DNA of 64,000 nucleotides from a virus. Under the pieces are notes generated by a model that worked only from the letters and a program-made list of their open reading frames with translations, had not been told where the DNA came from and ran no database searches. Shown here piece after piece: positions 8,071 through 64,000 of the stretch. The stretch covers positions 19,052 through 83,051 of the IMG/VR virus record IMGVR_UViG_3300050150_000084; one strand, 5' to 3'. The stretch's first letter is position 1. Every line of letters begins with the position of its first letter. Both the position numbers and the translations under genes were made by a program.

Positions 8071-8855
8071 GAAAAAAAACTTACTGGATTTGCAGATACC
8101 TGGACGTGGGCCTCCTCACCGCAATCAGGACACTTTTGGCGTGATGTGAAATCCACACCCCACTGACTGACCATTTGTGCCGCACCTTCAATCTTGCGCT
8201 TCCACCCAAGCGGGATGGACTTAACCCACTCACGGATTTGCTGCTTATCCGTCACGTCATCGACGCGTCGAATCACGTTGGACAGCGTGTCCAACACCAG
8301 CTGCTCCGCCTCATTAATGCTGAGCTCGTCCTCTTTCATTAGAGCAGTTGTTTGATACAACTCAATCACATTGTCGTACGTCAGTGGCTTCAGGGTAACA
8401 ATCTGACCATTTGGTACCGTACACGTGTATTCTTGGTTAATTGACGTTGGGTCAACTACCTTGGTTTCACGGATCATTTGTTGAATGTCGACGCTAAATG
8501 TGTGGGTCTTTGCGTTAGCGCAATCGTGGGTATATGTGACTTCCATCGCATCGCCAAACGACACAGAGCGCAAACACACCATCAGAAAGTCCACATCACG
8601 CGTCAACAGCTTCTCAGGCTTGATCACTTGTGGAATGCACCGAGCGAAAATCTCCATGATTGCACGGCCAGACAGCAGCTTGTCTGGTGTCGCCAGCACA
8701 ATTTCATCCACAGCGGTCATCGGATACACCTCAACTTCACCCTTCGTCACGCCTTCGGCAAGTTCTCCGTCCTCGTAGAATAGACCTTGGGATGGCAGAC
8801 GGAATGTAGCACCGGGGATGCGGATTTTGGCTAGTAGTGGATTGGTGTTGGACAT
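8067..8855 (-). CDS. Baseplate hub assembly protein / tail chaperone (T4 gp26-like)
   Basis: LPSQGLFY..VYPMTAVDE..DVDFLMVCLRSVSFG; CxxC near the end (CPDCG); terminal FFS; divergent from the tape measure gene. Confidence 0.75.
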   Translation of the reverse strand: MSNTNPLLAKIRIPGATFRLPSQGLFYEDGELAEGVTKGEVEVYPMTAVDEIVLATPDKLLSGRAIMEIFARCIPQVIKPEKLLTRDVDFLMVCLRSVSFGDAMEVTYTHDCANAKTHTFSVDIQQMIRETKVVDPTSINQEYTCTVPNGQIVTLKPLTYDNVIELYQTTALMKEDELSINEAEQLVLDTLSNVIRRVDDVTDKQQIREWVKSIPLGWKRKIEGAAQMVSQWGVDFTSRQKCPDCGEEAHVQVSANPVSFFS

Positions 8856-8876
8856 AGTTTCTCCTTATGTGTGTGG

Positions 8877-8906
8877 TATTTAATACAGGGATCAATAACG
8901 TAAATA
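8877..8906. promoter_or_regulatory. Divergent pair of late promoters (gp26-like on -, tape measure on +)
   Basis: tattta at 8877-8882 (TAAATA on -) and taaata at 8901-8906. Confidence 0.6.
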
Positions 8907-8928
8907 CCACAATCTCAAGGGTAAACAT

Positions 8929-11235
8929 ATGGCTGATCAAGCAACTCAACAACTCAACTCTATCATTCAGCAGTTTGCACAATCACTGCAAGGGTTAGTT
9001 AACGCCCAATCACGAACGCAAGCCGCAACGCTAGCTTCTATGAAAGCACATGCTGACATGCAAGATCATGTCAACCATGAGTTAGCTCTGTTCAATGATG
9101 CCTTGGCTAAGAACGAAACTCTGACGAAGCGTGAACAACACGCTCTAGATGAGCTGTTGAAGGCAAAAAAGCGTGAAATTGAGCTTAGCATTCAACACAA
9201 CAATTATCGAGACAAACTCAACAAGCTAACCGCACAAGGTACTGCAAGCGAACGCGACCTGGAAGAGTTGCGTATCTTGATACGCAACTCTAGCAACAAA
9301 CTTGCTGATGCTACGTTGCGCTCGACCAAAGCACAAAAGGATTTTACTGACGCTACTGCTGCGGCAAACACGTCATTGGTTAACCTCGCACGTAGCGGCA
9401 CACTAACATCTGCTGCATTGGTTTGGTTTGGTAAGACTGTTGCAGCTAACGCACGTCAACAATTGGCTCAGGTGAAAGCATCTGACGGTGTCATTGAGGC
9501 ATCTGGCAACATCGAGAAGGCTCTGCTGGACCAACAAACATTGGCCCTGAAGTACGGGGTATCAGCTGACGCTTTCATCAATGCTACCAAACAAGGCCGC
9601 CAAATGTTCAACGCTATGGGTGGCACTACCCAGGGCATGGCAACACTCGACTCTACGGTTAAACGCCTTGTAGTATCCACTGGGGGAGACTTTCAGAAGG
9701 CGTTGGAATTGGCAACCCAGGGTGCAAAATCCCTAGCTACCGCTGGTGTAAAGCCAACGCGAGCAGCCCTAGAGCGCTATACCGACGACGTCAATCGCCT
9801 GATTGCTCAAACAGGCATGTCGCGCGAATCAGCAATGTCATTGTACGACTCCATGTCGCAAGATGTTGACATGATTGACATTCTACGTTCCGCCCGCGGA
9901 AGTGAGCGAGAAGCAATCCTGCAGAGTCAGCGCGCAATGATCCAGAACGCCATCGCCGCAGGCATGAGTGCAGAACAAGCACAGCGGGCCGCCAAGATGC
10001 TAAACCAAATGGTTGCTGCAAAACCCATTGACCGCATTAAACAAGCTGCAAAAATGCGGGCGATGGCAGGAGCTATGGGAATCGCAGGTGGTGATGAGGC
10101 TGCCCAAGCAGTCATTGCTGGTAAGCGTGCTACACCCGAACAAAAAGAAGCTCTGATGCGATTCAACGAGAACGCAGCCAACAAGATGGATCAAATGGGT
10201 CAAGGCAGTCTGGGTGGTGAAATTTTTGCAACCACTCTGGCTGATAAACTGAATATGGATCAGTATTTCGGCAAAGACAGTCCCTTCTCTACCTCGATTG
10301 ACACTCTGAAGGCCCCAATTGCTCAGATTGATGCCACAATGAAGGACGTATCAGAGGATCAGATTGCTCAAACCATAGCAAGCACTGCTGAGATGGTGAA
10401 ACAACTTGACCTAATTGCATCAGGACAGCACTGGCTGGGCCCAATTGCAGCTGGCGTATCCTCCATCATTATGTTGATGGGTGGTGGCAAGTTCATCGGC
10501 AAAATCGGTGAAAAAATCGCTGGTAATGTTGCGGGCCGAGTTGCCGGTACTGTAGCTGGCGAAGCGGTCGGCGCAGGAGCTGCTGGTGCGGTAGGAGCTG
10601 CTGCAACTGGCGGCAAGCTGGCACAAGCTGGCAAGTTTGCCAGGGGAGTTGCGCTCCCCGCTGCTGCAATGATGGCAACAGGCGCTGGTGTTGACTGGGC
10701 GGCAGGCAAGATGGGCGTTGGCACAGCTAGGGTTGACACTGATCAGGATGACAAGAATTGGGACCGTGCAAGTCCGTGGGAAAAGATGCAATCTTCCATC
10801 CCTCGGGGCATTGAGAAACTGGGGAGCCTGTTCTTCCTCGATAATCTTGTCAACCAAGCAAAGTCTGAACGGATTGCTAGCGAAACAAAATACCTTGACG
10901 ATAACACAAAACCTGGTGTGGTTGGTGCTCCAGTACAAGGGCCTGGCCCCAATAAGGTGGATGATCGTGTTGCGAAAACTGCTCAGACAGAGACAAGCAA
11001 AAATGTTGAAAAGGCAACACTAACAGCAGCTGATAAGCTATCAGCCCAAGTAGCCCAAATGGATGTATCCAATGATTTGTTGAAGAAGTTGGCAGATAAC
11101 GCCGACCGACAGACCGACCTGCTTGAGAAACAACTAATCGCACTAACGCTAACAGATCGGGAAAAGCAGAATACTAGCACAAAAACAGCACTCCGTGGTG
11201 GCAACAAATTTGGGGCTCAATATAACTACGTTTAA
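8929..11235 (+). CDS. Probable tape measure protein (gp29-like)
   Basis: 768 aa, Ala/Gln-rich helical with a Gly/Ala-rich hydrophobic segment; next to the chaperone pair; late box upstream. Confidence 0.65.
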   Translation: MADQATQQLNSIIQQFAQSLQGLVNAQSRTQAATLASMKAHADMQDHVNHELALFNDALAKNETLTKREQHALDELLKAKKREIELSIQHNNYRDKLNKLTAQGTASERDLEELRILIRNSSNKLADATLRSTKAQKDFTDATAAANTSLVNLARSGTLTSAALVWFGKTVAANARQQLAQVKASDGVIEASGNIEKALLDQQTLALKYGVSADAFINATKQGRQMFNAMGGTTQGMATLDSTVKRLVVSTGGDFQKALELATQGAKSLATAGVKPTRAALERYTDDVNRLIAQTGMSRESAMSLYDSMSQDVDMIDILRSARGSEREAILQSQRAMIQNAIAAGMSAEQAQRAAKMLNQMVAAKPIDRIKQAAKMRAMAGAMGIAGGDEAAQAVIAGKRATPEQKEALMRFNENAANKMDQMGQGSLGGEIFATTLADKLNMDQYFGKDSPFSTSIDTLKAPIAQIDATMKDVSEDQIAQTIASTAEMVKQLDLIASGQHWLGPIAAGVSSIIMLMGGGKFIGKIGEKIAGNVAGRVAGTVAGEAVGAGAAGAVGAAATGGKLAQAGKFARGVALPAAAMMATGAGVDWAAGKMGVGTARVDTDQDDKNWDRASPWEKMQSSIPRGIEKLGSLFFLDNLVNQAKSERIASETKYLDDNTKPGVVGAPVQGPGPNKVDDRVAKTAQTETSKNVEKATLTAADKLSAQVAQMDVSNDLLKKLADNADRQTDLLEKQLIALTLTDREKQNTSTKTALRGGNKFGAQYNYV

Positions 11236-11288
11236 CGCCAGCGTTTTCAAGCTCATAAATACACGAACCTATAACTTCAGGATCCCAG

Positions 11289-12974
11289 ATGGCAAAATTT
11301 GCTGACTTCTTCAAAGTAGTTGCCCCGAAACCGGGTGTGACGACCATGTCAGACAGCCAGAATATTGGCGACCAGGGTGCATACGCCAATTATACTTGGT
11401 ATCAGCGCTTGGTACAAGGTTCGGCGTCTCGCTTGACACGTTACCGCGAATATGACCTAATGGACAACGATATTGAAATCGCTCGTTCGTTGGACACTAT
11501 TGCGGAAGAGATGGTTGGAACAGACGAAGGTACCGACCTACCGTTTGAACTAATCATTAAGAGTGAAAAAGATGCAAACCTCGACAGTAGTGTTGTGATG
11601 ACGCTCCGTGCCGCTCTGCGGTACTGGACTGATCTACACGACTGGCAAACTCGCCTATTCAAGGTTGCACGCGTAACAATCAAATACGGTGACTGTTTCT
11701 TCATCCGCCACCGCGACACATCAAAATGGGAATACGTTCACCCAAAGAGTGTTATCGCTGCAGTTGTTGATGAAAATGACGTGACCCGTGTTGTTGGTTG
11801 GCAGATTAAGCGCGACACAAAGGTCCCGCGCTCTCCGTACAACCAGCAATCTCCTCACGCAACCCAAGCTAGCAGCAACAATGAGATCATGGACGTTTTT
11901 GCAGCTGAAAACGTGGTCTGGTTCTCGTTAAATGACGACCTCGGTGAGCAAGCACCGTTCGGTGAGTCTGTTCTACGCGCAATTTACCGCGCTCAGAAGC
12001 AGAAGGAGTTGCTGGAAGACGCCATCATCATCTACCGCATTCAACGCGCACCTGAACGTCGTGTGTTTTACATTGACGTGGGCAAGATGCCGCCGCAACG
12101 CGTCAAAATGCACTTGGAGCAGATCAAGAACGAAATTCGTCAGCGCAAGATCCCAACTTACGGTGGTGGTGTTGAGCAAGTAGACTCCGTCTATAACCCT
12201 CAGCAAATGAGTGAAGACTTCTTCCTTGCGCAGCGCCCCGACGGTAAAGGTTCTCGCATTGAAACCCTTCCAGGTGGGCAAGGTCTTGGTGAACTGGCTG
12301 ACTTGGAATACTTCCAATGGAAGGTATTCCGTGGTCTACGCATCCCCCTATCCTACATGAAAGAGGGGCAGGACGGCTCTGTGATCTCAGACGGTAAGAC
12401 TGGTGTTGCATACATTCAAGAACTGCGATTCGCCCAATACATTGAGCGTTTGCAAGGTTACATCTCACACGTCATCGATAAGGAATTCAAACGCTACCTC
12501 AGGGCTGCTGGAATTCACATCGATACAGCAATCTTCAGCCTTCGCCTTAACAAGCCTGAGAACTACGGTAAGTACCGTAAGCAGCAGCTGGATAACGATC
12601 TACTGACAACCTACAACAGTGCTGCATCAATCGAACACTTGTCAAAGCGTTTTGCGATGTCTAACTACCTGCAGATGAGCGATGAACAGATTCTTCTGAA
12701 CTTCCGTCTGCGGTGTGAAGAATTGGGCATCAACCCTGACAGTGGCGATCGTCTAGCAAATATGCGAGCAGTCTACGGACCCCCACCTGAAGAAGCCGGA
12801 CTTGGCGCGGGTGGTGGAATGCTAGCCGGATCACTTGGTGGTGGTTTCGGCGGCCCGCCAGGAGACTTGATGGGTGGAGGGGACGCTATGGCTGTGGGTG
12901 GTGACATGAATTCACAAATGGGCAGCGCGCCAATTCCCCCCGAAAATGGCGGAGTTACGCCGCCGCCACAGTGA
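11289..12974 (+). CDS. gp20: Portal protein
   Basis: QKELLEDAIIIYRIQRAPERRVFYIDVGKMP, EDFFL, IETLPGG: T4 gp20 family motifs; late box at 11255-11261. Confidence 0.96.
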   Translation: MAKFADFFKVVAPKPGVTTMSDSQNIGDQGAYANYTWYQRLVQGSASRLTRYREYDLMDNDIEIARSLDTIAEEMVGTDEGTDLPFELIIKSEKDANLDSSVVMTLRAALRYWTDLHDWQTRLFKVARVTIKYGDCFFIRHRDTSKWEYVHPKSVIAAVVDENDVTRVVGWQIKRDTKVPRSPYNQQSPHATQASSNNEIMDVFAAENVVWFSLNDDLGEQAPFGESVLRAIYRAQKQKELLEDAIIIYRIQRAPERRVFYIDVGKMPPQRVKMHLEQIKNEIRQRKIPTYGGGVEQVDSVYNPQQMSEDFFLAQRPDGKGSRIETLPGGQGLGELADLEYFQWKVFRGLRIPLSYMKEGQDGSVISDGKTGVAYIQELRFAQYIERLQGYISHVIDKEFKRYLRAAGIHIDTAIFSLRLNKPENYGKYRKQQLDNDLLTTYNSAASIEHLSKRFAMSNYLQMSDEQILLNFRLRCEELGINPDSGDRLANMRAVYGPPPEEAGLGAGGGMLAGSLGGGFGGPPGDLMGGGDAMAVGGDMNSQMGSAPIPPENGGVTPPPQ

Positions 12975-13060
12975 ACCAGGGCAAGTTAAAAGCGACCCCC
13001 AATAAATAAATCAGAAGGTGTACTTATACACCGCACAACTTCCGTCACTAGGAGCAACAC

Positions 13061-13327
13061 ATGAACAAGCAAATGAAGCAACACCTCGAAGCCGTTGTTG
13101 ACGCAATCGTTGAATCGGATTCAGCAGCAGCAAAGGAAGCCTTTCACCAATATCTGCGTCTAAAGACCCAGTCGATCCTGCTCGGCGAATCCGTTGAGTC
13201 GGAGGAAACCTGCGACGAAGAAGACTGCACCGATGATGAAAAAGACGAGGACGACAAGAAGTCCAAGAAGCCTAAAAAGTCTAAGAAGGCAGATGACGAG
13301 TCTGGCGACGAAGACGACAAGATGTAA
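13061..13327 (+). CDS. Small acidic prohead core protein (gp67/gp68-like position)
   Basis: 88 aa with a D/E/K-rich tail, between portal and protease; late box at 13002-13008; SD GGAG. Confidence 0.55.
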   Translation: MNKQMKQHLEAVVDAIVESDSAAAKEAFHQYLRLKTQSILLGESVESEETCDEEDCTDDEKDEDDKKSKKPKKSKKADDESGDEDDKM

Positions 13328-13344
13328 TTTGATAGGTGGCTGCT

Positions 13345-13980
13345 ATGACAACACCTATTCTGCTCGTTGAAGAATTGGCGCCCGTAGAGGCGCGAATCAT
13401 CAGCGAATCATCAACCGACGGCAAGTCTATGTGGTTGAACGGTATTTGCATGCAAAGTTCTATCAAGAACCGCAACGGTCGCAATTACCCAATCACCGAG
13501 ATTTCCGAGGCAGTCCGAAATGCAGCACAGCGCATCAAGGAATGTAACGGCATTTTTGGTGAACTTGACCATCCCCAGACACTCACTATCAACAGTGATC
13601 GCATTTCGCATGTGATTACAGAGATGTGGATGAATGGTAACGACGCTTACGGTAAGGCTAAGCTGTTGAACACTCCAATGGGTTTGATTGCCCAAGAGCT
13701 GCTGAAGAGTGGTGTGAAGATTGGTGTGTCAAGCCGTGGCGCTGGCAACGTAAACGAGAGCGGTGATGTTCAAGGGTTCCAGTTCATCACATACGACATT
13801 GTTATCACCCCAAGTGCACCTCAGGCTTATCCTGGAATGATGTACGAATCCCTGCAATCAAAACAGGGGGCCAAGGTGATGACACTGGCTGAACAAGTTC
13901 GCCAAGACCCTGCTGCACAAAAGTACTTCAAGAAGGAAATCATGCAGTTTATCACAAACGATCTGTTCAAAAAACATTAA
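13345..13980 (+). CDS. gp21: Prohead core protease
   Basis: NRNGRNYP, GELDHP, GVSSRGAG, YDIVITPSAPQAY. Confidence 0.93.
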   Translation: MTTPILLVEELAPVEARIISESSTDGKSMWLNGICMQSSIKNRNGRNYPITEISEAVRNAAQRIKECNGIFGELDHPQTLTINSDRISHVITEMWMNGNDAYGKAKLLNTPMGLIAQELLKSGVKIGVSSRGAGNVNESGDVQGFQFITYDIVITPSAPQAYPGMMYESLQSKQGAKVMTLAEQVRQDPAAQKYFKKEIMQFITNDLFKKH

Positions 13981-14004
13981 AACCGAAAAAGTCCGGTACC
14001 AGTT

Positions 14005-14030
14005 AAAACCGCGTGAATACGCGGTTTTTT
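14005..14030 (+). terminator. Intrinsic terminator after gp21
   Basis: aaaaccgcgt-gaat-acgcggtttttt. Confidence 0.8.
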
Positions 14031-14072
14031 CGTATGTGCGCATAGAAAAGTTCAACCCCACGGGGACCGCCG

Positions 14073-14080
14073 TATAAATA
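14073..14080 (+). promoter_or_regulatory. Perfect T4 late promoter TATAAATA for the scaffold-capsid operon
   Basis: Exact consensus; followed by a 9-bp hairpin (14089-14109) and SD AAGGAG. Confidence 0.8.
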
Positions 14081-14125
14081 AAACACACGAATTTGCATAG
14101 TGCAAATTCCTAAGGAGACTCCAAC

Positions 14126-15061
14126 ATGGATGAACTGCTGAAGAAACTACTTGCTGCGGAAGTACTGACCGAGGAAACAAAGCAAGAGCTAGAAGCAGCT
14201 TTCTCGAATAAGCTAGATGAAGCTATTCAGAAGGCCCGCGACGAAGCTCAAGCGAACGTCACGGCTGAACTGAACGAGCAATGGATCACTGAGCGTGAAA
14301 TCGTTATCGAAGCCTTGGATGCCAAGGTTACCGAAGCGATGAAGGAAGAACTGAGCGAACTACACGAAGACATCAACCGTTTCCGTGACCTAGAAGCTGA
14401 ATTTGCTGAAAAGCTGGTTGAAGCTAAGGCCGACATGAAGGTTACTCTTCAAAAGGACATCGCACAACTGATTGAAAAGCTGGACCGCTTCTTGGAAGTC
14501 CGTCTGACCGCTGAACTCGATGAGCTTCGCGAAGACGTTGACACCGTTAAGAAGCAAGAGTTCGGTAAGAAGGTATTTGAAGCATTTGTGACTGAGTTCA
14601 AGAAGCACTACGCTGACGATGACTCAACACAGGCTAAACTGACTGAAGCTGAGCAGCGTCTGGAAGACACCCTGCACACTCTGGAAGAAGCTGAAAAGAA
14701 GCTGGGCAAGATGGAACGTTCCATCAAGCTGGAAAAAGTTCTCGCACCTCTCTCTGGCCGCACGAGGGAAGTGATGGAAGCTATCCTCAAGAATGTGGAC
14801 ACACCTCTTCTTGAAGAAGCGTACAAGACCTACGTAGGTCGTGTGCTGAAAGAAACGTCTGCTAAGGACGTAAAGACCTCAGAGAAGGAAGATGAAGTAC
14901 TGGCTGAAGGTAAACAAGTGAAGACAGTAAGCGGCGTTGTGAAGTCTGGCGACAACGAAGAGCAAATGATTGAGGAATCGGTCCACAGTCAAGAGCCTAA
15001 GCAACAGCCAACAATTTCTGACGCTACCCGCGCTTGGGCTCGTCGTCTCGGCGGCGTCTAA
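14126..15061 (+). CDS. gp22: Prohead core scaffolding protein
   Basis: Acidic coiled-coil 311 aa between protease and major capsid protein. Confidence 0.85.
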   Translation: MDELLKKLLAAEVLTEETKQELEAAFSNKLDEAIQKARDEAQANVTAELNEQWITEREIVIEALDAKVTEAMKEELSELHEDINRFRDLEAEFAEKLVEAKADMKVTLQKDIAQLIEKLDRFLEVRLTAELDELREDVDTVKKQEFGKKVFEAFVTEFKKHYADDDSTQAKLTEAEQRLEDTLHTLEEAEKKLGKMERSIKLEKVLAPLSGRTREVMEAILKNVDTPLLEEAYKTYVGRVLKETSAKDVKTSEKEDEVLAEGKQVKTVSGVVKSGDNEEQMIEESVHSQEPKQQPTISDATRAWARRLGGV

Positions 15062-15110
15062 TCGCTAACCAAAGCTAAGTAACTCTTAAACAACTCACAA
15101 AGGAAAAGTC

Positions 15111-16535
15111 ATGAATGAACTTTTTGAAAACTGGTCGGAAGTGAAGGAAACTCTCCTTGAAGGTCTCGATACTTCTAAGAAGCAAATCGTTGGCACACTT
15201 CTGGAAAACCAAAAGCAACACATCCTGGCTGAAACTGCAGCTCAAGGCTCTGTGGCAGCAAACGACATCGCAGGTTTCCGCAAGATCCTGATCCCGATGA
15301 TTCGTCGTATCATCCCTGGCACCATCGCTACGGAACTGGTTGGCGTTCAGCCAATGCAAGGTCCCGTCGGTCTGGTGTACTCGATGCGTTACAAGTACGG
15401 TGAAGCCGTCGCCGTTCCTGCAGCAGGTGCTGACGGTAACCCATGGACCGCTAACGGTTCAGACGGTACCATCGCTGCTGACGCTGAAATGTTCGGTAAC
15501 AACCCAGTTCTGCGTCAGTTCTATTCTGGTGCTGCTGGTACCGTTGTTGGTACGCCTCTGGCACAAACCGCTGGTGCATCCGGCATGACAAACCCTGAAG
15601 GTGAACCAGTTGAAATCGCTGGTGCAGCTTCACGTGGCGGCTGGCCTTCAAGCCTGCCTTCGCACAACACTTCTAAGTTCGGTCCTTACTCGAACGGTCT
15701 GGGTCAGCAAGTTTCTGGCTCGCTGTACGGTGGTTCGGGTTCGTTCATCGAAGGTTCTGGTGGCCGTAAGGTTAAGCTGGAAGTTGTGTCGCAAGCTGTT
15801 GAATCCACGACTCGTAAGCTGCAAGCCGGCTGGACGATCGAAGCTATGCAAGACCTGAAGTCGCAGCACGGCATGGATCTGGAAAGCGAACTGACGCAAG
15901 TCATCTCCGCTGAAATCGTTCAGGAAATCGACAGCGAAATTCTGTCGGACCTGACAGCTCTGGCTGGTACAGTTGCTGCATACGACTACTCGACCGTTGG
16001 TGTGACCGGCTATCAGCCTGCATACCTGGGTGACCGTTTCGCAAACCTCGGCGTTGTGATCAACGCAGTTGCTAACGAAATCGCTCGTAAGACCCGTCGT
16101 GGTGCTGGTAACTTCATTGTGGTTAGCCCAATGGTTGTTTCGATCCTGCAATCTGCTGCTAAGTCGGTGTTCGCACCTGCTGTTGCTGGCTCGTTCAAGG
16201 GTCCTAACAACTCAATGCTGGTCGGTACGCTGAACGGCACAATCAAAGTCTACAGCTACCTGTGGAACCAAGTGCAAGGCCTGGGAGCAGCAGCTGCTGA
16301 CACCATCCTTGTTGGTTACAAGGGCGGCAATGGTGAAACCGACACTGGCTACTTCTACTGCCCATACATCCCTCTGATGTCAAGCGGTGTTGTGATCAAC
16401 CCGGTCACCTTCCAACCAGTTGTCTCGATGATGACTCGCTACGGCAAGACAGCGTTCACCGCTTCTCAGTCGTCGCTTGGCAACAGCGCGGACTACTACG
16501 GCAAGATCAACGTAAGCAACTTCCAGTTCGCTTAA
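15111..16535 (+). CDS. gp23: Major capsid protein
   Basis: IPMIRRIIP..ELVGVQPMQGPVG, RKLQAGWTIEAMQDL, FYCPYIPL, MTRYG; predicted maturation site ILAE41/T. Confidence 0.97.
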   Translation: MNELFENWSEVKETLLEGLDTSKKQIVGTLLENQKQHILAETAAQGSVAANDIAGFRKILIPMIRRIIPGTIATELVGVQPMQGPVGLVYSMRYKYGEAVAVPAAGADGNPWTANGSDGTIAADAEMFGNNPVLRQFYSGAAGTVVGTPLAQTAGASGMTNPEGEPVEIAGAASRGGWPSSLPSHNTSKFGPYSNGLGQQVSGSLYGGSGSFIEGSGGRKVKLEVVSQAVESTTRKLQAGWTIEAMQDLKSQHGMDLESELTQVISAEIVQEIDSEILSDLTALAGTVAAYDYSTVGVTGYQPAYLGDRFANLGVVINAVANEIARKTRRGAGNFIVVSPMVVSILQSAAKSVFAPAVAGSFKGPNNSMLVGTLNGTIKVYSYLWNQVQGLGAAAADTILVGYKGGNGETDTGYFYCPYIPLMSSGVVINPVTFQPVVSMMTRYGKTAFTASQSSLGNSADYYGKINVSNFQFA

Positions 16536-58725: not shown

Positions 58726-59248
58726 ACCTAAACTAGACATCTTTCGTGTGCTCAACGCTGCAAACGTAAAAGATTCCAAGTTTTACAACGAACTAGCGGC
58801 TGACGAGCAAAAGGCTTTTCAGCCGCTGATTGTTACGCGCTGGATGTCTGGCGCATCGAATGCTGGTCAGATTTACTTTCTCAATGAGTTTGTGAATCCG
58901 TATACTTTTTCGCTATACAAACATCCCGAGTTGCTGTGGAAGTTAACCACAGTTGCAAGTGCCGGCAAGAAGCAGCGATACTTGTGGAATAAAGCGCCAA
59001 ACAAGCGTGAAACCGGCCGGCCAAATGCCGTTCGGTGCGTGGCAGAGTACTTCGGATACAGCTCATCACACGCAGCTGATGCAATGAACATTCTCACGCG
59101 GACGCAGATTATCGAAATGGCTGAACTGATGGGTTGGCAGCAAGAAGAGATCGCCAAAATTCGTCGTGAGCTCAAGGCCTCCGACGATCCCACAGCTAAG
59201 CCAAAGCGCGGCAAGAAGACAGACGCAACAGACGCATTGGAGTTCTAA
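58718..59248 (+). CDS. Clamp loader small subunit-like (gp62-like)
   Basis: LDIFRVL..FQPLIVTRWMS..VAEYFGYS; near gp44. Confidence 0.6.
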   Translation: MAEPKLDIFRVLNAANVKDSKFYNELAADEQKAFQPLIVTRWMSGASNAGQIYFLNEFVNPYTFSLYKHPELLWKLTTVASAGKKQRYLWNKAPNKRETGRPNAVRCVAEYFGYSSSHAADAMNILTRTQIIEMAELMGWQQEEIAKIRRELKASDDPTAKPKRGKKTDATDALEF

Positions 59249-60195
59249 TGAACCAACACTTGATCGACACAATTCGCCAACTATCCAAGCAAGACAGTAA
59301 GACGCTTTCACAGAAGGCTCTGAAGACAGCTGAAGAGGTTGGCGAATTGGCAAAGGTAGTCCTGCCATTTGACGGTGCATTTGCCACGAATCATAGGTTC
59401 GTAGAGCGAGAGCGAATCCTTGAGGAAGCTGTTGATACAACTTTGTGTGCGTTATCTGTTGCATACAGTCTTGATTTCTCAGATGAAGAAATTGAGGACA
59501 TGATCGCGCTCAAGGCAGAAAAGTGGGCGATGCTGCAACGCAAAGAGCAAGACATCAAATACCCGTTGCCGTATGAAATCCACGTGACGGTTAAGGCACC
59601 TCCGGGTCTACAACAGAGTTGGTTGACTCATTTTCGGGAGATTTGTGCCGAGTTGAAGGTGAAGCCTATTGTTCTCAACTTGAGTAGCGGACAAAAGCTA
59701 CTGTCTGATGTGATGACTTCATCCAAGCATTTCGGGACAAATTCATCCGCCTACTATGCCGCAAAGCACATTGAGAATGGTTTGGTTACTGAAGGGTTCA
59801 AGGTGGAACGCGTTAAGATTGAAACTGTGCCGTGGCATCCGGCAGCACCAATCGCTGATCAACCAATGCCACTCAACTGTTATTTTGAATCACACATTCC
59901 CGTAGAGTTGGAAGAGAGTAAGTTGCAGCTACTCCGTGACTGGATGGAGTTGACGGGGCTACAAAGAACCTTGCATATGTCACGCAATGCATTCAAGCGT
60001 GATGAGCGTGGTTTCATTACTCAAATGCTGACCTACCGCGAATACACCGGGTCTCGGGAGCAATTTGAAGCTCGGTTAGACACTATTGTCACGATCTTGA
60101 CGGCTAGGTGGGATATCGGTAAAGTCATCACTGAATTTTCCGTCTACGATACTAAGGTATCACACGACAGTTCTTGGCTAAACAAAGCAGATTAA
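59248..60195 (+). CDS. MazG-like nucleotide pyrophosphohydrolase fused to an uncharacterised C-terminal domain
   Basis: KTAEEVGELAK..ILEEAVD (MazG ExxE..ExxD); ~200-aa C-terminal domain (YEIHVTV..RVKIETVPW..YFESHI). Confidence 0.75.
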   Translation: MNQHLIDTIRQLSKQDSKTLSQKALKTAEEVGELAKVVLPFDGAFATNHRFVERERILEEAVDTTLCALSVAYSLDFSDEEIEDMIALKAEKWAMLQRKEQDIKYPLPYEIHVTVKAPPGLQQSWLTHFREICAELKVKPIVLNLSSGQKLLSDVMTSSKHFGTNSSAYYAAKHIENGLVTEGFKVERVKIETVPWHPAAPIADQPMPLNCYFESHIPVELEESKLQLLRDWMELTGLQRTLHMSRNAFKRDERGFITQMLTYREYTGSREQFEARLDTIVTILTARWDIGKVITEFSVYDTKVSHDSSWLNKAD

Positions 60196-60220
60196 ACCCG
60201 TGGTAATCACACCTACAACA

Positions 60221-60922
60221 ATGACCTCCCGTCCGTCCACATCAATTCAAGCACGCTTCACATGCAAACATTGCAAGAAGACGTTCGTGATTGAGAAACG
60301 GTTTCTGGAACACGAGTGCAAGCAAATGAAGCGAGAGGCGGAGTTGAAATCTCCGTCGGGTCAAACTGCATGGCATTATTACCAGTTGTGGATGCGGGCC
60401 CAGAACCGCATGCCTCCTCCAGCAGCGACGTTCCTAACATCGAAGTACTTCCGGACGTTTATTGAGTTTGTCAAGTTTTCCAAATCGGTTGATCTACCTG
60501 TCCCTGAGCGATTCATCAAGGTAATGGTGATGAAGGGATTTTCGCCGACAATGTGGCGGAACGACGAGGTGTATTCGATCTACATCGAATGGCTTGACCG
60601 TAAGATGTCTCCGCTGGACCAGGCAAAGTTGTCCATTACTACGCTGATGTCTTACTCGGAGAAGCATGAGATTCCAATCGATGAAGTGTTTGATCGGATG
60701 CCAGTACAGGATGCAATCCATTTGATTCGTGTTCGTAAGCTGTCACCGTGGCTGCTAATGTTTAGCAGGACGTTTCGTGTACTGTTCACCATACGCACAA
60801 CTCCTGAGCAAAAGATCATTATGGAAAACCTAATTCGTCCTAGTTACTGGGCGGATAAGCGTGATGATCACGCAGATGCAGTTGCGATCATCAAGACCCT
60901 GGTCGCAGAGATGGGAATCTAA
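60221..60922 (+). CDS. Hypothetical protein with an N-terminal zinc finger
   Basis: FTCKHCKKTF..F.EHEC. Confidence 0.65.
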   Translation: MTSRPSTSIQARFTCKHCKKTFVIEKRFLEHECKQMKREAELKSPSGQTAWHYYQLWMRAQNRMPPPAATFLTSKYFRTFIEFVKFSKSVDLPVPERFIKVMVMKGFSPTMWRNDEVYSIYIEWLDRKMSPLDQAKLSITTLMSYSEKHEIPIDEVFDRMPVQDAIHLIRVRKLSPWLLMFSRTFRVLFTIRTTPEQKIIMENLIRPSYWADKRDDHADAVAIIKTLVAEMGI

Positions 60923-60942: not shown

Positions 60943-60950
60943 TATAAATA
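60943..60950 (+). promoter_or_regulatory. Perfect T4 late promoter TATAAATA
   Basis: Exact consensus upstream of the ORF at 60984. Confidence 0.8.
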
Positions 60951-60983: not shown

Positions 60984-62435
60984 ATGGCTGTCTATACAAT
61001 CAATTACTCAGATCCGCTAGCAACCTCATTTGATATTCCACCAGGAAGTCAAAGCGGCCCTAACAGTTCCATTCAGGGAACATCACTACGTTTGTTCGGT
61101 CGCGGTGCGGTTGAGTGGGGTGAAGCTGTCAATGAGAACTTCGTCCGGTTGACAGAAAACTTCGCATCTGCCTCCCCACCAACAGTGGCAATCAGCGGAC
61201 AGATGTGGTGTGAACGCAAGCTATACTTCCACAACACTACCGCCGGCACTTCGCAGGGCTGGTACTACTATGACCTTACCGAAACAGCTGCAAACAAATG
61301 GAAGCTGTTGAACGGTAGCGGTGTTGTAGCTACAACACAACCGACCTCTCCAGTCACTGGTCAATACTGGTATGACGGCACTTCTCTGTGGGGTTACTAC
61401 AGTCTCGGTAAGTATGAGCCGGAAGCGTTCATTAAGCGTTCGTACTTCACAGGAACGGCTGCTCCAACTGCTTCAGTAATCCCCCGAATGGTTGTGCATG
61501 TTTTTGATCAAGCGTCGCCAGAGGGTTGGTCATCTCCAGTGACAACTTTCGTGTCCACTGGCACGGCTCCGGGCGCACCTCAGGTGGGTATGCTGTGGTA
61601 CAACGAATCCACAGGCAACTTGTCTGTGTACACTGGTTCTGCATGGCAAGAGATTCTCGGCCCAACAGGCGCTAGTTCGTCGCAGGCATCTGGTATCATC
61701 GACATGAATACCAACCGCATCTCAAACCTCGGCGCTCCTGTCGCAGGTGCTGATGCGGCTACCAAAACATATGTGGACACGGCAGTATCTGGTGCTGGTA
61801 GCGGATCTTACCTACCTTTGTCAGGTGGTACGCTAACAGGTGCTCTGACAGTGCAGAGCACGATCACTACAACCGGTACAATTCTGTCGAATTCCGTACT
61901 CCACGCCCGCGGCGGTATCTCCGCATATCCGTCTGGTGTGGCTGATGATCCGTACGGTTTTGATTCTGTCACCATGCCTGCTGACACCAATAACTACGGC
62001 TACTACGGTATGACACGCGCTGGCCAAATTGGTTGGGTGATGGGTATCGACTCCAGCAACCGCATGTTTATTGGTTCAGGCGGCCCTGGTCGTACGTCTA
62101 ACACACCGAACCGTCCACTGTATATTGACACCAACGGTAATCTGACAATTGCTGGTCAGCTTCAGGTTGGTGCACAAATTCGTAACGTGACGGCGGGCTC
62201 GACTGCAAATGACGCTGTTAACCTCGGTCAGATGAACAGCGCAATTGCAGCAGCTGTGGCTGGTAGTACTGGTACTGCAGTAATCTATTCCGGTTCTGGT
62301 ACATACAAAGCTGGCGACATTGCTATTGCTTACGGCCGCATCTACATGGCAGCTACGTCCGGTACTGGTGGCCCTGCAAACGCGTACCCACCTGGTGGCG
62401 GCTGGAGGCAAGTGTTCCCAGCTGTGTATTCATAA
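60984..62435 (+). CDS. Tail fibre/baseplate-associated structural protein
   Basis: FGRGAVEWGE..NENFVRLTENFAS, Trp repeats, DAATKTYVD and NDAVNLGQM fibre knobs. Confidence 0.7.
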   Translation: MAVYTINYSDPLATSFDIPPGSQSGPNSSIQGTSLRLFGRGAVEWGEAVNENFVRLTENFASASPPTVAISGQMWCERKLYFHNTTAGTSQGWYYYDLTETAANKWKLLNGSGVVATTQPTSPVTGQYWYDGTSLWGYYSLGKYEPEAFIKRSYFTGTAAPTASVIPRMVVHVFDQASPEGWSSPVTTFVSTGTAPGAPQVGMLWYNESTGNLSVYTGSAWQEILGPTGASSSQASGIIDMNTNRISNLGAPVAGADAATKTYVDTAVSGAGSGSYLPLSGGTLTGALTVQSTITTTGTILSNSVLHARGGISAYPSGVADDPYGFDSVTMPADTNNYGYYGMTRAGQIGWVMGIDSSNRMFIGSGGPGRTSNTPNRPLYIDTNGNLTIAGQLQVGAQIRNVTAGSTANDAVNLGQMNSAIAAAVAGSTGTAVIYSGSGTYKAGDIAIAYGRIYMAATSGTGGPANAYPPGGGWRQVFPAVYS

Positions 62436-62446
62436 GGCGTTAACCT

Positions 62447-63331
62447 ATGGCACAGCGTAACGTAACATCATCTGGTGTAAGTAACCTGTCTCCCGGATAC
62501 ACAATATCCGGGATCCAAACTACTATTACCAACCTCAAGGCATCGATGCAAACAAACAAGCCAATTTTGGCTAGTGATATGCATTCGTTCATTCCAAACA
62601 TCATTAACCCAATGGCTAGCCACAACCACACGGTAGCGGATAGGCAGGGTATTGACACATTTGGTAACGTAACTACTTACGGTACTACAGGTCAAGATGT
62701 GACGAAGACTTCCAGCGGCCCGTCCCCAGCGTGGAATGCAGCTACCAATATTGCATTTAATGCGGACGAACCGATCGATCACGGTGACATCAACTACATT
62801 CGTGGTTTTGTGAACGGTATGCTGTCGCACAACCACACCGTTGATGACACCAAAGGCGCTACCGACATCTCTGTGGCATTATCCAGCCGTACGTTTAACT
62901 ACGGTACAGCCAACGATGCTGATGGTTATACGTATCTACAATTCCAGAGTGATGGTAATTTAGTGTGGTACTACACATACGGATACTACGGATCTACTAC
63001 GGGAATATCAGAAGCTGTTAGTAGTGGACAATGGATTAACATGAATCCAGTTGATTCAGCCACCTCGGGTGCATATGATGTAATGTATACAGTTTCTGCG
63101 CAATCTGGGACCTTTAACTGGATTGCTGGCAACATGTCACCGTCTACGTGGTACAACCTGGGGACGACTCGAGTGGTGGGAATAGCAGCCACATGGCCCC
63201 CAGGCGGCCTATCTGACATCTTTTCTAGTGTAACGATTGCTGTGCAAATTCGAAGCGCTGGGACAGGAGCCGTAGTTGCAACTGCAACGTATGTGTTACC
63301 TCTCTGGTTGTCGCACTACGAAGCACCGTAA
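62447..63331 (+). CDS. Fibre-associated protein with two SH[NT]H repeats
   Basis: NKPILASDM..NPMASHNHTVAD and DEPIDHGDI..NGMLSHNHTVDD. Confidence 0.6.
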   Translation: MAQRNVTSSGVSNLSPGYTISGIQTTITNLKASMQTNKPILASDMHSFIPNIINPMASHNHTVADRQGIDTFGNVTTYGTTGQDVTKTSSGPSPAWNAATNIAFNADEPIDHGDINYIRGFVNGMLSHNHTVDDTKGATDISVALSSRTFNYGTANDADGYTYLQFQSDGNLVWYYTYGYYGSTTGISEAVSSGQWINMNPVDSATSGAYDVMYTVSAQSGTFNWIAGNMSPSTWYNLGTTRVVGIAATWPPGGLSDIFSSVTIAVQIRSAGTGAVVATATYVLPLWLSHYEAP

Positions 63332-63334
63332 CGC

Positions 63335-63363
63335 TTGACTTTATGCTTAACCCATCGTAAACT
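63335..63363 (+). promoter_or_regulatory. sigma70-type promoter for the Cys-rich peptide operon
   Basis: TTGACT-N17-TAAACT; SD GGAG downstream. Confidence 0.65.
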
Positions 63364-63381
63364 CAAGATTGGAGCCAACAT

Positions 63382-63588
63382 ATGACAACCGACAACCTTT
63401 CCACCAAGACCGCTGTACAAACGCTGCCAGCTGCACAATCAGCCGACAATCCTGTGCAAGCACAAGTGTTCCAGGACATGCTGACGATCCTGAACGAACT
63501 CGTATCCCACACCCACATCTTCTACGACGACTACAGTACAGCTTGCAACTGCAATTGTAATTGCAACTGCTCTCGCGGCATTCTGTAA
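63382..63588 (+). CDS. 68-aa peptide with a C-terminal CNCNCNCNC motif
   Basis: Own promoter and SD; Cys/Asn codons vary synonymously (tgc aac tgc aat tgt aat tgc aac tgc). Confidence 0.75.
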   Translation: MTTDNLSTKTAVQTLPAAQSADNPVQAQVFQDMLTILNELVSHTHIFYDDYSTACNCNCNCNCSRGIL

Positions 63589-63594
63589 TTTCAT

Positions 63595-64000
63595 ATGCGT
63601 TATATGTTAGTGATGGATGAGGGACAACGTCCCTCAGGGTTTGCTACCATGCAAGAACTATCGAACGTGGATACGTTGCCGGATAGTCTTGTATTGGAGT
63701 TTTTCTCACACTTCAAGCCAGGCTTACGCATGATTCGTGACCAACGAATGAATGCCACAGATGCTTTTAGCTTTGCTCACTTTTTGATCAATCCAGACTC
63801 CCAAGAGATGTTGCCATCCATGATGGCTCCAATCTACGCACATGCCGCAATGGATGCTTTAGATTCGGGTGTGTATGAGAGCGTGTTTGTAGGAACAGTC
63901 ACGAATCTGCCGCAAATCCACGAATCTGCGATCCTGCCGTCGATGGGCCTATATGCTCGCCAACAAGATGGTCAAATCGTGAACGTGCGCAACGGTGCGG
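63595..64000 (+). CDS. Hypothetical protein, partial (runs off the right edge)
   Basis: ATG at 63595, 6 nt after the peptide stop; open for 135 codons (MRYMLVMDEGQRPSGF...). Confidence 0.65.
   Translation, partial: MRYMLVMDEGQRPSGFATMQELSNVDTLPDSLVLEFFSHFKPGLRMIRDQRMNATDAFSFAHFLINPDSQEMLPSMMAPIYAHAAMDALDSGVYESVFVGTVTNLPQIHESAILPSMGLYARQQDGQIVNVRNGA

Follow-up and report, generated by a model that had tools for sequence, protein, structure and literature searches.

A phage cassette of a cysteine-tailed peptide, a His-x-His protein and radical SAM enzymes lies among fibre-like genes and may modify a fibre-associated peptide

Introduction

Why should a large phage encode, among its fibre-like genes, a small peptide that ends in regularly alternating Cys residues, and what becomes of that peptide once it is made? 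To our knowledge, the only Cys-rich peptides that radical SAM/SPASM enzymes are known to cross-link are bacterial natural products and a few enzyme subunits. The peptide gene considered here lies near the 3' end of a 64-kb window (the whole stretch of DNA that was analysed), which corresponds to bases 19052-83051 of a phage record, a 174,565-bp contig of 51% G+C. The contig represents a large phage carrying T4-type late promoter boxes, and the public runs behind it lead to leaf-litter metagenomes. An initial annotation of the window had proposed that the peptide begins an operon which modifies or metal-loads a fibre-derived peptide.

Results

A peptide gene with an alternating Cys tail

The features of the peptide gene and its immediate surroundings are as follows.

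63335-63363, + strand: sigma70-like box TTGACT-N17-TAAACT, a weak match (9/12)
63371-63374, + strand: Shine-Dalgarno sequence GGAG, 7 nt 5' of the ATG
63382-63588, + strand: peptide gene, 68 aa, with a variable N-terminus, a third copy of the His module and a Cys/Asn tail; C-terminal end STACNCNCNCNCSRGIL
63508-63528, + strand: peptide motif HTHIFYD (HxHxxxD), with H43, H45 and D49 invariant
63544-63570, + strand: CNCNCNCNC array, C55-C63, followed by S-R-G-I-L, in which R65 and G66 are conserved
63586-63588, + strand: peptide stop codon TAA
63595-64000, + strand: 5' part of the U307 gene (307 aa), which ends at contig position 83569, 518 bases beyond the window

The peptide tail reads Y-S-T-A-C-N-C-N-C-N-C-N-C-S-R-G-I-L, and no (C-x)4-C run other than its array occurs in any of the window's six frames. 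The array is encoded by TGC AAC TGC AAT TGT AAT TGC AAC TGC, so that TGC is mixed with TGT and AAC with AAT, and the five Cys at i,i+2 spacing with varied synonymous codons that the initial annotation described are borne out. The same holds for its Shine-Dalgarno sequence and for the further ORF said to start 6 nt beyond the peptide stop, whose ATG is at 63595 and which leaves the window. The claim that the gene has its own sigma70 promoter stands only in part: the box is present, but such matches are no commoner in the region than in shuffled sequence (4 found, 3.8 expected). A better box, TTGACA-N17-TACAAT, occurs at the equivalent place in two relatives only (loci L004 and L005), and the intergenic gap 5' of the peptide gene is absent in most relatives.

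A search of 5.8 billion proteins retrieved 48 metagenomic homologues of the peptide besides the window's own protein, none of them named, and searches of Pfam and NCBIfam gave no family match. The homologues are 65-94 aa long (mostly 65-68 aa); their N-terminal ~25 residues vary, while the remainder approximates LNELVxHTHIFYDDYSTAC-N-C-N-C-x-C-x-C-[STG]-R-G-x-x. In the homologue alignment, H43, H45, D49, Y51, C57, N58, C59 and G66 are invariant. When 33 distinct core DNA sequences are compared, no replacement affects the five Cys, two His, Asp-Asp, Thr, Arg or Gly, and TGT and TGC, like other synonymous codons, are used about equally, with synonymous sites saturated. Judged by these sequences, the 68-aa ORF is a real gene under selection.

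The residues between the Cys are restricted. In order, they are N/D/E, N/Q, A/Q/N/D and A/D/N/Q in the 33 core sequences, and a large peptide subfamily reads CECQCQCAC; across the family, the number of tail Cys ranges from three to six. The present peptide contains three NxxC registers (N56-C59, N58-C61 and N60-C63), in which many relatives have E, Q or D for N; the inter-Cys position that varies most is 62, where the third residue further along is not Cys. Asn, Asp, Gln and Glu are the acceptor residues of the known enzymes that form Cys-to-Asx/Glx thioethers. The CNCNCNCNC array is the probable site of radical SAM modification.

Among cultured phages, tblastn matched RP12 and RP31 solely. 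RP12 encodes an unannotated 65-aa peptide homologue (NC_041911.1 82888-83085, equal to L002:5724-5921) ending in ...HTHVFYDNYGSNCNCNCACTRGSL; its ORF fills the gap between gp074 and gp075, and its stop codon and the gp075 ATG share one base (an ATGA-type overlap). RP31 has the same peptide sequence, with the match at 79702-79788.

Radical SAM enzymes downstream of the peptide

In the contig, six genes follow the peptide end to end (locus L001), beginning with U307. The other five lie outside the window.

Contig 83566-85281: R571, a 571-aa radical SAM enzyme with a seven-Cys SPASM pattern
Contig 85278-86015: DUF3050 protein, 245 aa (PF11251, 4e-80)
Contig 85985-87088: R367, a radical SAM enzyme
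Contig 87085-88227: U380, with an invariant CxxxCxxC
Contig 88224-89507: R427, a radical SAM enzyme with SPASM

The suggestion that radical SAM/SPASM genes might be found in the next 5-10 kb was therefore confirmed by R571, R367 and R427, together with the CxxxCxxC protein U380. R571 matches Pfam Radical_SAM at 3e-16, above gathering, and the CxxxCxxC residues C91, C95 and C98 are invariant among 11 orthologues, as are the seven Cys of its SPASM pattern (C315, C333, C378, C381, C387, C390 and C409), which scores 17.8 bits against Pfam SPASM (gathering score 21.5). R367 and R427 also pass for Radical_SAM (2e-10 and 2e-9), and both retain conserved C-terminal Cys clusters. By these matches, the three proteins are clearly radical SAM enzymes. 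In U380, CxAxCxxCY is invariant, the alignment with the R571 and R367 radical SAM cores is weak (E about 1e-4), and the nearest ESM Atlas clusters consist of radical SAM proteins. U380 gave no family match, and its profile searched against PDB sequences returned matches at chance level (best ribosomal protein S3Ae, E 0.018). On one motif and weak profile matches, U380 is probably a fourth radical SAM enzyme.

The top NCBIfam match of R571 is the PapB ranthipeptide maturase (NF047865; E 9e-32), with 110.5 bits against a cut-off of 340; that score places R571 outside the PapB family as NCBI defines it, with PapB as its nearest named relative. Its second-best match is TIGR03906 (QhpD; 7e-23), at 81 bits against a cut-off of 453, and among solved structures its closest relative is CteB (PDB 5WGG, E 3e-9). 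Because the curated family cut-offs are far above all of the radical SAM scores, the type of reaction is assigned by analogy, and by that analogy it is most likely thioether formation. Two other assignments were considered and rejected. Membership of the anaerobic sulfatase maturases (TIGR03942) is contradicted by scores of 53, 41 and 19 bits against a cut-off of 349, and the formylglycine target C-x-[PA]-x-R does not fit the tail, where C-N-C-S-R has Cys at the Pro/Ala place. The CXXX-repeat system resembles the cassette in pairing a SPASM maturase with a regular Cys repeat, but R571 scores 66.8 bits against the TIGR04115 cut-off of 350 and the repeat here is C-x-C rather than C-x-x-x.

Pfam and NCBIfam searches found neither protease nor transporter families in the cassette. 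For U307, the same databases gave no match, its profile reached at best E 0.98 against PDB sequences, and a word-based search matched only U307 itself; a profile search gathered 185 protein clusters at 50% identity. U307 is the fastest-evolving member of the cassette, and none of its invariant residues looks catalytic. The model (pLDDT 80) shows a beta-rich protein containing Ig-like sandwich domains, and a fold search with it returned generic Ig-like sandwiches (TM about 0.2). As modelled, U307 looks like a structural or binding protein rather than an enzyme.

The peptide carries a module of the upstream protein

The gene directly 5' of the peptide encodes a protein with two further copies of the HxHxxxD motif.

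62447-63331, + strand: His-x-His protein, 294 aa, with two helix-plus-HxHxxxD modules in its N-terminal ~137 aa
62621-62641, + strand: module 1 motif HNHTVAD (HxHxxxD)
62828-62848, + strand: module 2 motif HNHTVDD (HxHxxxD)

Family alignments show H59, H61 and D65 of the first module and H128, H130 and D134 of the second to be invariant. Family members are usually about 130 aa long, and the C-terminal ~160 aa of the present protein form an extra beta-rich domain that is absent from most relatives. In an AlphaFold model (pLDDT 74), each motif is placed on a short strand directly after a helix; the model had no Foldseek match, and its best VIA hit (IglD/TssK neck, Z 5.0) is within noise.

Residues 15-49 of the peptide align to module 2 of this protein (hhalign probability 82%, E 1e-5), which agrees with the earlier idea of a fibre-derived peptide. 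The front half of the peptide is homologous to the His module, and therefore the peptide consists of one module plus a Cys tail. Each cassette holds three modules in all 58 loci counted. In L003, a one-module His protein is followed by two tandem peptides, and the total is still three. The three-module rule largely follows from the homology, and its independent test is this one lineage. The count fits, by analogy with trimeric fibre His sites, a three-part assembly with six His.

The module pair forms the N-terminal portion of a longer protein (294, 386 or 452 aa) in this phage and in L006 and L015. The C-terminal part of the 452-aa His protein of L006 (L006:8617-9975, on the same contig as L017) includes a Hint/intein-like stretch (CFPAGSFVLMADGTW...).

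The gene set is kept together across phages

The cassette is present in all 13 of the loci first examined that had sufficient DNA. An IMG/VR scan with the R571 profile then gave 59 orthologous loci, in which the peptide was present 56 times, the His protein 55, U307 51, R367 and U380 49 each, R427 47 and DUF3050 28. Where the lack of the peptide was checked (L041, L066 and L067), the contig ends too early. Given sufficient DNA, essentially all related loci have the peptide and the enzymes together. The neighbourhood comparison proposed in the initial annotation accordingly found modifying enzymes both near the peptide and co-occurring with it.

The same gene set is kept together in at least five gene orders, for example His-U307-peptide-enzymes, U307-peptide-three enzymes-His-R427, and enzymes-His-peptide-U307. 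The phiKZ-like Ralstonia jumbo phages RP12 and RP31 have the same enzymes in the same order, and the complete cassette also occurs on one bacterial MAG contig (Bdellovibrio). In the RP12/RP31 genome paper, the cassette enzymes appear as annotations only, and the DUF3050 homologue is annotated as mangotoxin protein MgoB. In the literature collection searched, no published description of this cassette was found; the radical SAM genes mentioned in articles about Campylobacter phages and about a cyanophage are other ones.

A scan based on R427 recovered the same loci as the R571 scan plus a minimal version, L151. There, between fibre-like genes (L151:8291-11269), are a U307-like 351-aa gene, a peptide ending in NCECECGGGGTI, a 133-aa His protein and an R427-type enzyme. 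The R427 type is the sole radical SAM enzyme kept in L151, which points to R427 as the core enzyme.

Several variants were also seen. An extra R571-like paralogue (424 aa) lies between U380 and R427 in L012 (L012:8420-9694). In L172, a 543-kb IMG/VR contig, five tandem radical SAM genes (8776-16098; two R427-like and three R571-like) precede the gene of a 288-aa protein whose C-terminal region bears an HxH motif, and no alternating-Cys ORF was found nearby. Additionally, in L142, L143, L174-L176, L081, L083, L086 and L087, R427-like or distant R571-like enzymes adjoin other alternating-Cys proteins. These neighbours include a 147-aa protein with DCACACAC and a Gly run, 298-331-aa proteins with YNCNCDCNC, and a 121-aa protein ending in CNCNCDC. 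Such pairings suggest a wider class of phage Cys-array substrates.

The cassette lies in a fibre neighbourhood

The His-x-His protein and the peptide belong to a co-directional block that is headed by a fibre gene.

60943-60950, + strand: T4-type late promoter box TATAAATA, 5' of the fibre gene heading the co-directional block
60984-62435, + strand: 483-aa fibre-like protein with a weak YadA_stalk match

Equivalent [TC]ATAAATA boxes head the same block in L004, L006, L008 and L012, and in L008 the late box precedes the His gene itself, which is there the first gene of the block. At the other end, R427 is followed by a late-type box, CATAAATA, and then by two more fibre-like genes. The end of the 483-aa protein (...WRQVFPAVYS) resembles fibre proteins adjoining the cassette in relatives. 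Similarly, the N-terminal ten residues of the His protein (MPxITRTTSG) are common to the adjoining fibre proteins in L010, L013 and L014. The cassette is flanked by fibre-like genes in T4-like, phiKZ-like and several other lineages, and in RP12 two virion structural (YomR-like) genes lie 5' of it.

Two further genes lie 5' of the block in the window. A 240-aa protein with a C2H2-like Cys/His pattern (60200-60922) is conserved directly 5' of the fibre/cassette block in L008 and L012. A 315-aa protein (59248-60195) has weak Pfam matches only, and in L008 a 336-aa homologue of it lies two ORFs 5' of the zinc-finger-like gene.

In virion mass spectrometry of RP31, none of ORF68-76 is listed, and neither are the His protein, U307 or the enzymes. 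The adjoining fibre-like proteins were missed too and the unannotated peptide was not in the search database, and the experiment is therefore uninformative on this point.

Discussion

The preferred reading, to which a probability of roughly 55% is assigned, is that a fibre-associated peptide docks through its His module, has its Cys tail cross-linked by thioethers, and stays with the fibre apparatus. The upstream fibre-locus protein would take up the peptide's helix-plus-HxHxxxD module next to its own two, and a metal could be held by the six His of the resulting three-part bundle, much as trimeric His sites do in phage fibres. The enzymes would then act on the C-terminal tail of the peptide, most likely joining the sulfur of Cys to a carbon in the side chain of the interleaved Asn/Asp/Gln/Glu residues or of the invariant Asp-Asp, in ranthipeptide-type chemistry such as that of PapB, CteB, QhpD and NxxcB. 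Rather than being released as an antibiotic, the product would remain a component of the fibre apparatus, either hardened or able to bind metal. A broader formulation is held more tentatively, at somewhat less than even odds: that phages of several unrelated lineages encode a split three-module His-metal domain, divided between two gene products, whose Cys tail is stapled by up to four radical SAM enzymes. The possible sigma70 promoter and the absence of a signal sequence also fit an intracellular role.

Each part of this reading has known counterparts. PapB/PapA (freyrasin) and CteB/CteA (SCIFF) consist of a seven-Cys SPASM enzyme adjoining a small Cys-rich peptide, a layout that R571, with its seven-Cys SPASM pattern, and the peptide recall, and the alternation of Cys with Asp/Glu-type residues is a PapA/CteA-type likeness. 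In contrast to these ranthipeptide systems, the cassette has three clear enzymes and a probable fourth rather than one, spaces its Cys at i,i+2 rather than as CxxxD, and scores far below the cut-offs; its carrier is a phage, it lies in tail-fibre genes, its 'leader' is a copy of a fibre-locus module, and it has no protease or exporter. NxxcB/NxxcA is a streptococcal radical SAM RiPP with Cys-to-Asn beta-thioether links, which the three NxxC registers recall; however, a large peptide subfamily has Glu/Gln for Asn, and no NxxcB family match was obtained. In quinohemoprotein amine dehydrogenase, QhpD makes intraprotein Cys-Asp/Glu thioethers in the gamma subunit, QhpC. There, as is proposed for the cassette, a SPASM enzyme cross-links a small protein that is kept in a larger assembly and not secreted, although the cassette has neither the dehydrogenase context nor a quinone-forming partner. 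Finally, His-x-His metal sites are known in the T4 gp37 tip, in gp12 and in the apex of P2 gpV-type spikes. The predicted arrangement here resembles them in having HxH on a strand directly after a helix, among fibre genes and in three copies per assembly, but the copies would be two plus one from two gene products rather than a homotrimer, and the cassette proteins have no sequence or fold match to these fibre and spike proteins.

A different fate for the peptide would be release, with the His module as a leader, the two-module protein as a leader-binding chaperone (an RRE/PqqD-type role) and the modified tail freed at lysis. The layout matches, in that a small precursor precedes radical SAM/SPASM maturases; a sigma70-like box lies 5' of the peptide here and in L004/L005, the genes 5' of the cassette on the Bdellovibrio MAG contig are not fibre-looking, and lysis makes an exporter unnecessary. 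However, the cassette includes neither protease nor transporter, and the 'leader' is conserved as much as the core, is homologous to a fibre-locus protein module, and in some phages has its counterpart as the N-terminal domain of a long protein. In addition, the cassette lies among fibre genes in unrelated lineages, behind late boxes, and its core hardly varies, unlike most antibiotic RiPP cores. A released RiPP, its freed tail serving as an antibacterial, signalling or anti-defence peptide, is considered unlikely.

Alternatively, the Cys might bind metal or iron-sulfur clusters as an unmodified ladder, with the enzymes acting on the His protein, the fibre or a small molecule. The i,i+2 spacing would put all Cys on one face of a strand, adjoining the His-x-His site, and Ala is tolerated at the third and fourth inter-Cys positions. 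Yet a pure metal site does not need the first two inter-Cys residues to be always Asn, Asp, Glu or Gln, as they are. The peptide occurs with the enzymes almost without exception, even L151 keeping one R427-type enzyme alongside the peptide and the His protein, and R427-like enzymes also adjoin other Cys-array proteins; an unmodified ladder is judged improbable, below release. Least probable, and given very little weight, is that the peptide is the source of a cofactor or small molecule like PQQ or mycofactocin, with the DUF3050 protein, which is heme-oxygenase-like, taking part in tailoring. This would suit one conserved short peptide accompanied by several radical SAM enzymes, and the DUF3050 match (HamA_HO-like in the Pfam listing) and the MgoB annotation of its RP12/RP31 homologue point in the same direction. 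Against it, DUF3050 is present in only about half of the loci (28/59), the cassette is without a peptidase to excise a product, and the fibre context and the module homology are left unexplained.

Overall, the cassette is widespread, and what appears to be its substrate resembles a piece split off from a fibre-type protein. Since the cultured Ralstonia phages RP12 and RP31 carry the system, it is open to direct test. If the cross-linking reading is true, Cys cross-linking chemistry would enter phage biology. Were the product released, it would represent a new phage-borne RiPP class, whereas a product in the virion would mean a new kind of particle maturation, which could bear on host recognition, stability and phage engineering. 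In the latter case, the peptide would be the first part of a virus particle to be cross-linked through thioethers by enzymes, and phages would have recruited RiPP chemistry for the architecture of the virion or for binding to receptors.
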